Position numbers and translations under genes: made by a program
IMG/VR virus record: IMGVR_UViG_2690316028_000007
Direction: 5' to 3' (one strand)
DNA length: 21,361 bases
DNA from: a virus
Lineage: Duplodnaviria > Heunggongvirae > Uroviricota > Caudoviricetes
Part shown: positions 1 through 21,361 of the stretch, one piece after another
Layout of the letters: every line of letters starts with the position of its first letter
How positions within the stretch are numbered: the stretch's first letter is position 1
Notes under the pieces: generated by a model
What the model saw: only the letters and a program-made list of their open reading frames with translations
Database searches by the model: none
What the model was told of the DNA's origin: nothing

Positions 1-41
1 CCTCTGACTGAGAGTTTACTCACTTAGCCGCGTGTCCACTA

Positions 42-305
42 TTGCTGGGTAAGATCACATCACGTAAAAATCACACGAATGTGCTGATGCATATACAGGG
101 GTATTTTAGTAATTACTTAAGTACACGCCAGCGTAAAGAGTTGAGCGAGGTTATACTTAACTATCGCTTTGGCACATTGCCTCTTCTTGCGCCGTTGACT
201 CTGCTGAAGCATTATCTGGGTGAGTATCCTAATGATTACTTGCTTACACAGAATTACTTCGATCCCTATCCGGAAGAACTGGCTCTAAGACTGATGGTGA
301 ATTAA
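42..305 (+). CDS. Hypothetical small protein; C-terminal motif LPLLAPLTLLKHYLGEYPNDYLL...PYPEELALR recalls DUF1722/YbgA-like C-terminal domains (from memory, unverified)
   Basis: ORF opens after an in-frame TGA at 9-11; first start is TTG at 42, first ATG at 87. No clear Shine-Dalgarno. Possibly a gene fragment. Confidence 0.3.
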   Translation: MLGKITSRKNHTNVLMHIQGYFSNYLSTRQRKELSEVILNYRFGTLPLLAPLTLLKHYLGEYPNDYLLTQNYFDPYPEELALRLMVN

Positions 306-6708: not shown

Positions 6709-7412
6709 TGCTGAATCAGGAAACCGCAAAGGCAGCACGAACCGATTCAGGTTATATCCTTCGCGCACCGAGACGAATGCGGGTTGCTGATGCCGTTGCT
6801 CAGTATATGCGGGTGCCCATGGGGGCAGGGAACTCAGTCCCGTGGGATCCGCTGGTGGCACCGTATGTTATTGAGCCTATGAACTGCCTGGCCTCGCGTG
6901 AATACGACGCAGTGATATTTGTTGGCCCGGCACGAACCGGCAAGACTATCGGCCTGATTGACGGCTGGGTGATTTACAACGTGATTTGCGATCCTGCGGA
7001 TATGCTGATCATTCAGATGACAGAGGAAAAAGCCCGCGAACACTCCAAAAAACGACTCGCCAGAACGTTTCGCGTCAGCCCGGAAGTGGTCAGTCGCCTG
7101 AGTCCGAACAAAAATGACAACAACGTTTATGACAGAACATTCCTTGCTGGCAACTACCTGAAAATCGGCTGGCCGTCAGTCAATATCATGTCCTCATCAG
7201 ATTATAAATGCGTCGCGCTGACGGATTATGACCGTTTTCCGGAAGATATTGATGGCGAGGGGGATGCCTTCTCTCTTGCCTCAAAACGTACCACCACATT
7301 TATGTCCAGCGGTATGACGCTGGTGGAGAGTTCCCCCGCTGGCCATGCAGATCCCGGCGTTTCGTCAGAAACTGAGCGACGGCTGGTACCAGGTACGCAT
7401 TGCCGGGCGTGA
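6708..7412 (+). pseudogene. Terminase large subunit, N-terminal ATPase fragment (Walker A GPARTGKT), truncated at a deletion junction near 7320-7345
   Basis: Translationally coupled to nohQ. P-loop motif VIFVGPARTGKT. The ORF runs into out-of-frame tail-gene sequence and ends after 234 codons, whereas intact large terminases are about 600-640 aa. Confidence 0.7.
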
Positions 7413-7917: not shown

Positions 7918-10893
7918 ATGGGTAAAGGCAGCAGTAAGGGGCATACCCCGCGCGAAGCGAAGGACAACCTGAAATCCACGCAGCTGCTGAGTGTGATTGA
8001 TGCCATCAGCGAAGGGCCGGTTGAAGGTCCGGTGGATGGATTAAAAAGCGTGCTGCTGAACAGTACGCCGGTGCTGGACAGTGAGGGGAATACCAATATA
8101 TCCGGCGTCACGGTGGTGTTCCGGGCAGGTGAGCAGGAGCAGACTCCGCCGGAGGGGTTTGAATCCTCCGGCTCCGAGACGGTGCTGGGTACGGAAGTGA
8201 AATATGACACGCCGATCACCCGCACCATTACGTCGGCAAACATCGACCGTCTGCGCTTTACCTTCGGTGTACAGGCACTGGTGGAAACCACCTCAAAGGG
8301 TGACAGGAATCCGTCGGAAGTCCGCCTGCTGGTTCAGATACAGCGTAATGGTGGCTGGGTGACGGAAAAAGACATCACCATTAAGGGCAAAACCACCTCG
8401 CAGTATCTGGCCTCGGTGGTGGTGGATAACCTGCCACCGCGCCCGTTTAATATCCGGATGCGCAGAATGACGCCGGACAGCACCACAGACCAGCTGCAGA
8501 ACAAAACGCTCTGGTCGTCATACACCGAAATCATCGATGTGAAACAGAGCTACCCGAACACGGCACTGGTCGGCGTGCAGGTGGATTCGGAGCAGTTCGG
8601 CAGCCAGCAGGTGAGCCGTAATTATCATCTTCGCGGGCGTATTCTGCAGGTGCCGTCGAATTATAACCCGCAGACGCGGCAATACAGCGGTATCTGGGAC
8701 GGAACGTTTAAACCGGCATACAGCAACAACATGGCCTGGTGTCTGTGGGATATGCTGACCCATCCACGCTACGGCATGGGGAAACGTCTTGGTGCGGCGG
8801 ATGTGGACAAATGGGCGCTGTATGTCATCGGCCAGTACTGCGATCAGTCAGTACCGGACGGCTTTGGCGGCACGGAGCCGCGCATCACCTGTAATGCATA
8901 CCTGACCACACAGCGCAAGGCGTGGGATGTGCTCAGTGATTTCTGCTCGGCGATGCGCTGTATGCCGGTATGGAACGGGCAGACGCTGACGTTCGTGCAG
9001 GACCGACCGTCGGATAAGGTGTGGACCTATAACCGCAGTAATGTGGTGATGCCGGATGATGGCGCGCCGTTCCGCTACAGTTTCAGCGCCCTGAAAGACC
9101 GCCATAATGCCGTTGAGGTGAACTGGATTGACCCGGATAACGGCTGGGAGACGGCGACAGAGCTTGTTGAAGATACGCAGGCCATTGCCCGTTACGGTCG
9201 TAACGTCACGAAGATGGATGCCTTTGGCTGTACCAGCCGGGGGCAGGCGCACCGCGCCGGGCTGTGGCTGATTAAAACGGAACTGCTGGAAACGCAGACC
9301 GTGGACTTCAGCGTGGGTGCGGAAGGGCTTCGCCATGTACCGGGGGATGTCATTGAAATCTGCGATGATGACTATGCGGGTATCAGCACCGGCGGGCGCG
9401 TGCTGGCGGTGAACAGCCAGACCCGGACGCTGACGCTCGACCGTGAAATCACGCTGCCATCCTCCGGTACCACGCTGATAAGCCTGGTTGACGGTCAGGG
9501 TAATCCGGTCAGCGTGGAGGTCCAGTCCGTCACCGACGGCGTGAAGGTGAAAGTGAGCCGTGTTCCTGACGGCGTTGCAGAATACAGCGTGTGGGGGCTG
9601 AAGCTGCCGACGCTGCGCCAGCGCCTGTTCCGCTGCGTGAGTATCCGTGAGAACGATGACGGCACGTATGCCATCACCGCCGTGCAGCATGTACCTTCTG
9701 CCCGTAAGGTGAATGGTAAGGCGCTTTCAGCGGATATAACACTGACGCCGAAAGATATTGGTACGCTTAACTCAACAACAATGTCATTCAGCGGTGGTGC
9801 TGGTTGGTTCAAATTAGCAACGGTAACCATGCCACAGGCGAGTTCTGTTGTTTCAATTACGTTGATTGGTGGCGCGGGATTTAACGTGGGGTCACCTCAA
9901 CAGGCAGGTATATCTGAACTTGTTTTGCGTGCAGGTAATGGTAATCCGAAGGGGATTACTGGTGCTTTATGGCAGCGCACATCGACAGGGTTTACAAATT
10001 TTGCCTGGGTCAATACATCTGGTGATACTTACGATATTTACGTTGCAATCGGAAATTATGCGACTGGTGTAAATATTCAATGGGATTATACCAGTAATGC
10101 CAGCGTGACGATTCATACGTCACCAGCATATTCTGCTAATAAGCCGGAAGGGTTAACGGACGGTACAGTTTATTCACTCTATACGCCATCAGAGCAGTTT
10201 TATCCGCCTGGCGCACCAATCCCGTGGCCATCAGATACCGTTCCGTCTGGCTATGCCCTGATGCAGGGGCAGACTTTTGACAAATCTGCATACCCGAAAC
10301 TTGCAGCCGCTTATCCGTCAGCCGTGATCCCTGATATGCGTGGCTGGACGATTAAGGGCAAACCCGCCAGTGGTCGTGCCGTATTGTCTCAGGAACAGGA
10401 CGGCATTAAATCGCACACCCACAGCGCCAGCGCATCCAGTACGGATTTGGGGACGAAAAACACATCGTCGTTTGATTACGGAACCAAATCCACGAATAAC
10501 ACCGGGGCGCATACCCATAGTATTAGCGGGACTGCAAATAGTGCCGGTGCGCACCAACACAAGAGTTCCGGTGCATTTGGTGGCACGAACACGAGCATTT
10601 TCCCTAATGGTTATACCGCGATTTTAAATCTAAGCGCGGGGATTATGAGCACAACAAGCGGTAGTGGCCAGACTCGTAATGCAGGGAAGACATCATCAGA
10701 TGGTGCTCATACCCACTCGCTGTCCGGCACTGCTGCAAGCGCAGGCGCACATGCACATACTGTCGGTATTGGTGCTCATACGCACTCCGTTGCGATTGGT
10801 TCACATGGACACACCATCACCGTTAACGCTGCTGGTAACGCGGAAAACACCGTCAAAAACATCGCATTTAACTATATTGTGAGGCTTGCATAA
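7918..10893 (+). CDS. stfQ: Chimeric tail fibre: lambda J (host-specificity protein) N-terminal about 597 aa fused in frame to a side-tail-fibre C-terminus with tail-collar-like region and HxH repeats
   Basis: N-terminus [34 protein letters not shown]... matches lambda J as remembered, up to ...AITAVQHVP (about nt 9700). Thereafter the protein diverges and GC content drops. C-terminus has GAHTHS/GAHAHT/GSHGHT repeats and ends [25 protein letters not shown] upstream of the ATG. Confidence 0.85.
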
Positions 10894-20488: not shown

Positions 20489-21007
20489 TTATAGCAGTAA
20501 TTGCAGCAGCTGGACGAGGGCAAACCTCACCGCTAAAGCTAATACCGTTTCGCAGTCGCCAGCAAAATGCATAACCGCAGTGTAGGTCTGGCCTTTAATA
20601 TGCCACGCGAACCAGACGGTACCCGCTGGCGTACCATCTTCACCGCCCTCCGGTCCGCCGTAGCCGGTAATGGCAATACTGACATCAGCATCCGCACGCT
20701 CTATGGCACCTGTTGCCATTTCTGCTGCCACTTTCTCACTCACCGCAGAATATCGTTCAAGAGATTGCTGGCTTACGCTGAGGATTTTCATCTTTGCCTG
20801 ATCGGTGAAAGTAACAAAGCCTGCACCGTAAAATTTGGGTGTATCTTCAGCTGCACACAGGGCGCTAGCCAACTTACCGCCGGTGCATGATTCGGCGGTA
20901 GTTAAGCGTAATTGATCCGCGATAAGTCTTTGACTCAACGCGGATGTCAGGTTTTCAATAGTGTCGGTATCTGCGAGTTGTACAATTTTATCTTTATTAA
21001 TGTTCAC
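20489..21007 (-). CDS. ydeJ: CinA-family (C-terminal domain, PncC-like) protein
   Basis: 172 aa. Motifs TTAESCTGGKLASAL and ITGYGGPEG typical of the CinA C-terminal domain. Convergent with dcp as in K-12. Confidence 0.85.
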   Translation of the reverse strand: MNINKDKIVQLADTDTIENLTSALSQRLIADQLRLTTAESCTGGKLASALCAAEDTPKFYGAGFVTFTDQAKMKILSVSQQSLERYSAVSEKVAAEMATGAIERADADVSIAITGYGGPEGGEDGTPAGTVWFAWHIKGQTYTAVMHFAGDCETVLALAVRFALVQLLQLLL

Positions 21008-21282
21008 TGTTTTTTGTCCACGCTATTATATGTAAAGGTGATTTGCTTTTTCTGTATGCTCGTCCAATATAATAATTTTCAAACATATAAATCCGATTAT
21101 TCTGAAAATATGTTTAAGACTCTTCAATCTTCTTAACTTTAGTGAGTTAAATTCTCTGAATATTTGACAGCTAGTGGGCTGATTTTAAATGCCTTATAAC
21201 AATTGGCAGTATTCTTATTTGGCAATTATAAAAATAGCAACCAGACTTAATAAGTCAAACCAAACGCAATTAAGGAGTTAGT

Positions 21283-21307
21283 ATGAAATTTCAGGCCATT
21301 GTATTAG
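21283..21307 (+). pseudogene. First 8 codons (MKFQAIVL) of a secreted small protein, probably ydeI, interrupted by IS5
   Basis: ATG at 21283 with AAGGAG 5 nt upstream. Reading frame runs straight into the IS5 terminal repeat at 21308. Confidence 0.45.
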
Positions 21308-21361
21308 GGAAGGTGCGAACAAGTTCCTGATATGAGATCATCATATTCATCCGGAGCGCAT
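21308..21361 (-). mobile_element. Terminal 54 bp of an IS5-family insertion sequence (inverted-repeat end), continuing beyond the window
   Basis: GGAAGGTGCGAACAAG followed by TTCCTGATATGAGATCAT matches the remembered IS5 terminal inverted repeat and adjacent sequence. Preceded by TTAG, which fits the IS5 YTAR target. Confidence 0.8.

Follow-up and report, generated by a model that had tools for sequence, protein, structure and literature searches.

An ISKpn26 end within ydeI at the edge of an Escherichia coli draft contig and its probable consequence for the gene

The product of ydeI is a small protein of the periplasm with an OB fold (BOF family). At the end of the stretch of DNA analyzed here (the window, 21,361 nt in total), a gene starting with MKFQAIVL breaks off and is continued by the end of an insertion sequence. 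This raises the questions of which gene is interrupted, what entered it and in which way, and whether the gene is lost in this strain. A first-pass annotation had described the site as an IS5-family insertion after codon 8 of a ydeI-like gene and as a probable, strain-specific knockout. The window and draft contig LLYK01000109.1 of assembly GCA_001484375.1 are identical from end to end; contig L021 equals positions 1 to 20893 of the window. The window represents E. coli chromosome, in which a Qin-like defective prophage is followed by ydfJ, ydfI, ydfZ, rspR, ydfG, dcp, ydeJ, and the start of ydeI.

The gene order ydfG-dcp-ydeJ-ydeI' of the window is the same as in strains K-12, ATCC 8739, AH04, B379, and I4, and the interrupted gene is located downstream of dcp and divergently from ydeJ. 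In K-12, ATCC 8739, and many other strains, a ydeI gene of 393 nt is found at an equal distance after ydeJ, and dgcZ lies 254 nt past ydeI. The intact product has 130 aa, contains the Pfam domain BOF (PF04076; bacterial OB-fold), and is named "YdeI family stress tolerance OB fold protein" in RefSeq. Judged by the dcp-ydeJ-ydeI synteny and by PF04076 in the intact product, the "ydeI-like" gene is ydeI itself. The ydeJ-ydeI intergenic region (21008 to 21282, plus strand), where the ydeI promoter is expected, has a GC content of 26 to 32% and is identical to that of K-12 at 270 of 275 nt. A simple sigma-70 scan of this spacer revealed no plus-strand match.

As read directly from the window, the Shine-Dalgarno sequence AAGGAG (21272 to 21277, plus strand) is positioned five bases before the ydeI start codon ATG at 21283. 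The 5' remnant of the gene (21283 to 21307, plus strand) comprises the eight codons MKFQAIVL and base 1 of codon 9 (ATGAAATTTCAGGCCATTGTATTAG), while GGAAGGTGCGAACAAGTTCC starts at 21308. All 25 coding bases are identical to ydeI of K-12 and ATCC 8739; the comparison with the K-12 locus, which the first-pass annotation had recommended, thus shows agreement in coding sequence, upstream spacer, and synteny. In megablast matches to thousands of E. coli genomes (query 1 to 346, corresponding to window positions 20962 to 21307), the ydeI homology stops at window base 21307. The uninterrupted gene reads ...GTA TTA GCA AGT TTT..., and the break is located one base beyond codon 8, within TTAG. Codon 8 is indeed retained, as described earlier, but the break is not directly behind it: base 1 of codon 9 is also retained, and the TTAG corresponds to ydeI nt 22 to 25.

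The frame starting at the ydeI ATG continues into the inserted sequence and is translated as MKFQAIVLGKVRTSS, 15 codons followed by a TGA at 21328 to 21330 (residual fusion ORF at 21283 to 21330, plus strand; the stop codon corresponds to element nt 21 to 23). In intact orthologues, PF04076 is present at this position, whereas the window product has eight native residues only and the BOF domain is absent from it. Due to this, ydeI in the window is a disrupted remnant and not a functional member of the family.

The sequence from 21308 to 21361 (GGAAGGTGCGAACAAGTTCCTGATATGAGATCATCATATTCATCCGGAGCGCAT) begins with the 16-bp terminal inverted repeat GGAAGGTGCGAAYAAG, which is an exact match and lies precisely at the element boundary (21308 to 21323, plus strand). 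The 16-nt motif GGAAGGTGCGAACAAG occurs a single time in the window and was not found in 100 shuffles. Over its entire length, the 54-nt tail is identical to the ISKpn26 copies annotated in AH04 and B379 (54/54), whereas it matches K-12 IS5A at 44 of 54 positions and the opposite end of either element at only 27 of 54. The AH04 and B379 copies are annotated as "IS5-like element ISKpn26 family transposase." According to this comparison, the IS5-family element noticed initially is ISKpn26, a more precise assignment than IS5 proper, and the visible part is nt 1 to 54 of its left, transposase-proximal end (21308 to 21361, plus strand). ISKpn26 and IS5 share 94.8% identity over 1,195 bp, with no difference in the last 183 nt.

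A complete ISKpn26 was defined as an element of approximately 1,195 bp with a DDE transposase gene (326 aa). The reference copies have a length of 1,195 bp and are flanked by 4-bp duplications (AH04, TTAA; B379, TTAG). In the window, the transposase gene is codirectional with ydeI, and its start at element nt 69 lies past the contig end. If the target site was duplicated as expected, the TTAG at 21304 to 21307 (plus strand) is the left of the two 4-bp copies. It fits Py-T-A-Pu (YTAR), the target consensus of IS5, for which TTAG itself has been listed (PMC5493358). The ribosome binding site, the MKFQAIVL start, the IS5-type inverted repeat, and the TTAG at the junction were therefore all recognized correctly in the first-pass annotation.

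We consider it very probable that a full-length ISKpn26 transposed into the ydeI TTAG and duplicated this tetranucleotide, resulting in a ydeI null allele. Simple transposition is based on the left junction as observed, on the element end with its identity and orientation, on the TTAG, on the truncation of the reading frame, and on the absence of this junction from complete genomes (see below). From these observations we infer that the element is of full length, that a duplicated TTAG and the continuation of ydeI follow on its far side, and that gene function is lost. The event would have taken place in the lineage of E. coli GCA_001484375.1, with an ISKpn26 of approximately 1,195 bp entering the TTAG at ydeI nt 22 to 25, its transposase gene oriented like ydeI, and TTAG being duplicated on insertion. 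The right end of ISKpn26 would then continue into TTAG and CAAGTTTTCTTGTC (ydeI nt 22 onward); in a simple insertion, this right end would be followed by TTAGCAAGTTTTC and then by dgcZ.

The native ribosome binding site would yield a 15-residue peptide, and the ydeI 3' part would be cut off from the promoter, the ribosome binding site, and the signal peptide, a separation that would make the allele null. When the complete insertion allele was modelled, the ydeI frame was closed 39 nt inside the right end of the IS, and the start candidates for the remainder of ydeI were Met14, which has no Shine-Dalgarno sequence, and a TTG four codons further. Of the signal peptide MKFQAIVLASFLVMPYALA, the predicted Met14 product lacks the charged N-region and the greater part of the hydrophobic core. 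Gene callers report a 117-aa Met14 product in disrupted ydeI alleles. Judged from these sequence features, the ydeI allele of the window is most likely null; a start at Met14 without a Shine-Dalgarno sequence and without most of the signal peptide is in line with the knockout that had been proposed as probable.

Two isolate assemblies carry insertions at the same position. In OZ039380.1 (GCA_964043265.1; L034, 288 to 1482), a full 1,195-bp IS5 with 99.7% identity to K-12 IS5A is inserted at the identical ydeI TTAG, in an orientation opposite to that in the window and flanked on either side by TTAG. In GCA_051893495.1 (L019, 2874 to 2982), a 109-nt IS5-type MITE occupies the same TTAG; this element, too, is flanked by two copies of TTAG, and ydeJ is intact upstream of it. 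A truncated 117-aa Met14 product is called downstream in both cases. Since TTAG is duplicated in both assemblies, the tetranucleotide is a proven IS5-group target that gives the canonical duplication. The 4-bp duplication predicted by the first-pass annotation is thus documented by these other genomes only, because the contig of the window ends before the remainder of ISKpn26 and the far-side TTAG can be read. Both insertions resemble the one in the window in using ydeI nt 22 to 25 as a target, but differ from it in being an IS5 of opposite orientation and a nonautonomous 109-nt element, respectively. As the elements differ, we conclude that they represent independent events and not one allele.

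ISKpn26 was also detected elsewhere at this locus. In AH04 (L001, 3588 to 4782; also in AH02 and CT01), it is inserted at approximately codon 88 of ydeI with a TTAA duplication, and in B379 (L002, 3758 to 4952), it is located 40 nt past the ydeI stop codon with a TTAG duplication, leaving ydeI intact. These copies share the element, its orientation, and the locus with the window, but their insertion points are different.

Additional lesions were observed in the 5' end of ydeI of other assemblies (L011 to L016, L018, L028 to L033, and L035 to L037). They include IS1 at four different positions within the first 14 codons (L018, L028, L030, and L037), start-codon mutations (L012 and L015; ATG to ATA among the lesions), nonsense mutations (L016 and L031; stop codons at Q4 and L8), and single-base indels, some of which are perhaps sequencing errors. 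The many independent 5' lesions suggest that ydeI is frequently lost, in a sample that is biased towards such alleles. In GCA_045581885.1 (L008), an IS903-like end (GGCTTTGTTGAATAAATCAG, approximately from position 7024 onward) interrupts ydeI near codon 49 and is followed by a UTRA-domain gene, eamA, and an inverted ydeE, while dgcZ is absent. This altered gene order indicates an IS-associated rearrangement.

We also searched other genomes for the two junctions. The left ydeI-ISKpn26 junction was found in 0 of 5,426 complete E. coli genomes, and the same was true for the predicted right junction, supporting the view that the insertion is strain specific. The right junction was predicted as CTTATTCGCACCTTCC-TTAG-CAAGTTTTC, also given as TTATTCGCACCTTCC-TTAG-CAAGTTTTCTTGTC. 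In exact-pattern scans, GTDB species representatives contained neither junction; in metagenome contigs, the left junction was not detected, and the right junction was detected once, in L006. In total, the predicted right junction is present in two metagenome contigs, L006 (ERZ834769) and L017 (JGI 3300029253).

In both of these contigs, an IS5 variant (L017, 1788 to 2982; L006, 798 to 1980) adjoins TTAG and the ydeI 3' part, and the two variants have common private changes relative to IS5A at element positions 54, 647, 889, and 1170. The other flank of the IS is the cspH/gfc region in L017 (CTAA) and an ISAs1-type transposase gene in L006 (CAAG). The left ends of both elements are IS5-type and not ISKpn26-type, and L006 is a low-coverage IS5/ISKpn26 mosaic. 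These junctions could have arisen by a large IS5-mediated inversion or deletion or by chimeric metagenome assembly. They speak against simple transposition to the extent that they show one of the two, IS-IS recombination or chimeric assembly, to take place at this locus. We do not take L006 and L017 to prove the duplication in the window, in view of their unrelated left flanks, their IS5-type left ends, and the identical last 183 nt; since IS5 and ISKpn26 do not differ over this length, a right junction cannot tell which of them abuts ydeI. The two contigs show only that the arrangement of an IS5-group right end, TTAG, and ydeI nt 26 onward occurs in nature.

The same contigs bear on a different history of the locus, in which ISKpn26 inserted at ydeI but later recombined with another IS5-group copy by inversion or deletion, so that its far end no longer meets the rest of ydeI and dgcZ. 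We regard this as unlikely. L017, which links the cspH/gfc region (CTAA) via a full IS5 to TTAG and the ydeI 3' part, the foreign left flank in L006, and the IS903-associated rearrangement at ydeI in L008 would be compatible with it, and the contig breaks imply multiple IS copies in the genome. However, L017 and L006 are metagenome contigs that run through a 1.2-kb repeat, for which chimeric assembly is at least as likely, and the two isolate assemblies in which both flanks are visible (L019 and L034) are simple insertions with target-site duplication.

For the simple transposition of ISKpn26, the way in which the contig terminates is also informative. The contig breaks off after 54 nt of ISKpn26 on one side and after 57 nt of an IS3 on the other. 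Both ends thus are assembly breaks approximately 55 nt into IS termini, a signature typical of multicopy repeats in short-read assemblies, and the contig-end analysis shows both as caused by insertion sequences. Breaks of this kind at both ends are an argument that ydeI contains an ordinary, repeated IS and not an isolated piece of one. That only a fragment of an IS5-family element is present, for example a solo end or a derivative that is MITE-like or has lost internal sequence, is very unlikely: although only 54 nt are visible and the 109-nt MITE occupies the same site in another strain, nt 17 to 54 of the tail match the ISKpn26 interior exactly and do not match the MITE, and a short single-copy piece would not normally break a short-read assembly. 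The MITE diverges from the window tail after the 16-nt inverted repeat, having AATAAG and not AACAAG. Finally, an assembly or library artefact, with ydeI being intact in the organism, is hardly credible in spite of the position at the extreme end of a draft contig, because a canonical YTAR target is followed, exactly at the break, by base 1 of the terminal repeat of the IS, a coincidence that a random chimera would not give, and because the identical contig sequence is recorded in two samples. At the opposite contig end, window positions 1 to 57 are the left terminus of an IS3, identical to that in strain I4 (57/57), and this IS3 interrupts a YbgA-family gene of the Qin-like prophage.

The repeated use of the ydeI TTAG raises the possibility that it is a structural hot spot for IS5-group transposases and that the orientation in the window places the transposase promoter and gene under the envelope-stress-responsive ydeI promoter, with read-through towards dgcZ. 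To this combined proposal we assign a small though appreciable probability. Besides the insertion in the window, the TTAG received the MITE in L019 and an IS5 in L034, and probably, in L017 and L006, also an IS5 of the orientation opposite to that in L034; it is the sole YTAR in ydeI nt 1 to 39. An AT-rich context, like that near the ydeI TTAG, was proposed to favour IS5 insertion (PMC5493358). The searches targeted the junction or the Met14 product, by which only events in ydeI nt 1 to 39 are detectable; because of this bias towards the site, the repeated use of TTAG is unquantified. These cases come from a collection with an enormous number of E. coli assemblies, and among the 5,426 complete E. 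coli genomes, none had an IS5-group element at this TTAG. A hot spot at this position is an unproven possibility; the reuse of TTAG together with the unannotated MITE may be of interest for IS5 target choice, for which an unbiased count is needed before claims are made.

Regarding read-through, it was described that when the left inverted repeat (IRL) of IS5 faces upstream host sequence, its weak transposase promoter can be converted to an active fusion promoter, from which transcripts cross the element and drive genes downstream (PMC11894529). The first-pass annotation had remarked that IS5 ends can also create outward promoters; the mechanism documented for IS5 in the orientation of the window is a fusion promoter at the IRL with transcription through the element, rather than transcription outward from the far end (PMC11894529). 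Similar to the activation of fucAO by IS5 (and also of glpFK, bglGFB, and flhDC), the IRL and the transposase promoter in the window are directed towards the upstream promoter region, the downstream genes (ydeI' and dgcZ) are codirectional, and the YTAR used as the target borders an AT-rich intergenic region. In contrast to operon activation, the element in the window is inside a coding sequence and the gene is destroyed; only the orientation is compatible with read-through. By analogy, one may speculate that transcription from the ydeI promoter would enter at the IRL in the transposase sense, with effects on the transposase and the ydeI remnant and perhaps on dgcZ.

The terminal repeats of the 109-nt MITE are IS5-type (GGAAGGTGCGAATAAG...CTTATTCGCACCTTCC), and its interior is not related to IS5. 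Of the 5,426 complete E. coli genomes, 32 contain the element, at 134 places in all and in up to 31 copies each. The copies are located on chromosomes and plasmids, are at least 99% identical, and are mostly unannotated. Three of four further copies inspected (L024 to L027) have matching 4-bp YTAR duplications (CTAA, TTAA, and TTAG), and the fourth (L024) has nonmatching flanks, AAAG and TTAG. Our literature searches yielded no paper describing an IS5-type 109-nt MITE of E. coli.

The insertion in ydeI, a nonessential envelope-stress gene, is a routine event of a well-known kind, and its sequence is already public (LLYK01000109.1). Literature searches on ydeI in combination with IS5 yielded gene lists only. 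A comparable case is mgrB of Klebsiella pneumoniae, where the same element disrupts the coding sequence of a small envelope-related gene; there, ISKpn26 was described as an IS5-family element of approximately 1.2 kb with a 4-bp YTAR duplication, the direct repeat being TTAA (PMC10569121). In Salmonella, YdeI (OmdA) is periplasmic, associated with OmpD, and important in antimicrobial peptide resistance (Pilonieta et al. 2009, as cited in PMC6370654). While loss of mgrB leads to colistin resistance, loss of ydeI would by analogy, if anything, lower the tolerance to antimicrobial peptides, an expectation that derives from the Salmonella work to the extent that it is cited in PMC6370654. The strain is thereby flagged as a putative natural ydeI null, which would be relevant to antimicrobial peptide and oxidative stress phenotypes.

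The prophage part of the window contains a further peculiarity. A 991-aa ORF at 7918 to 10893 combines GpJ-type tail-tip and tail-fibre Collar domains (Pfam FNIII-A_GpJ, Phage-tail_3, and Collar). It forms a singleton in 90% clustering, is found on a handful of contigs, and looks like a deletion-generated fusion in a decayed Qin-like prophage; it served well as a marker of the lineage. This rare tail protein is also encoded on a 28.9-kb metagenome contig (L022), which extends beyond ydeI.
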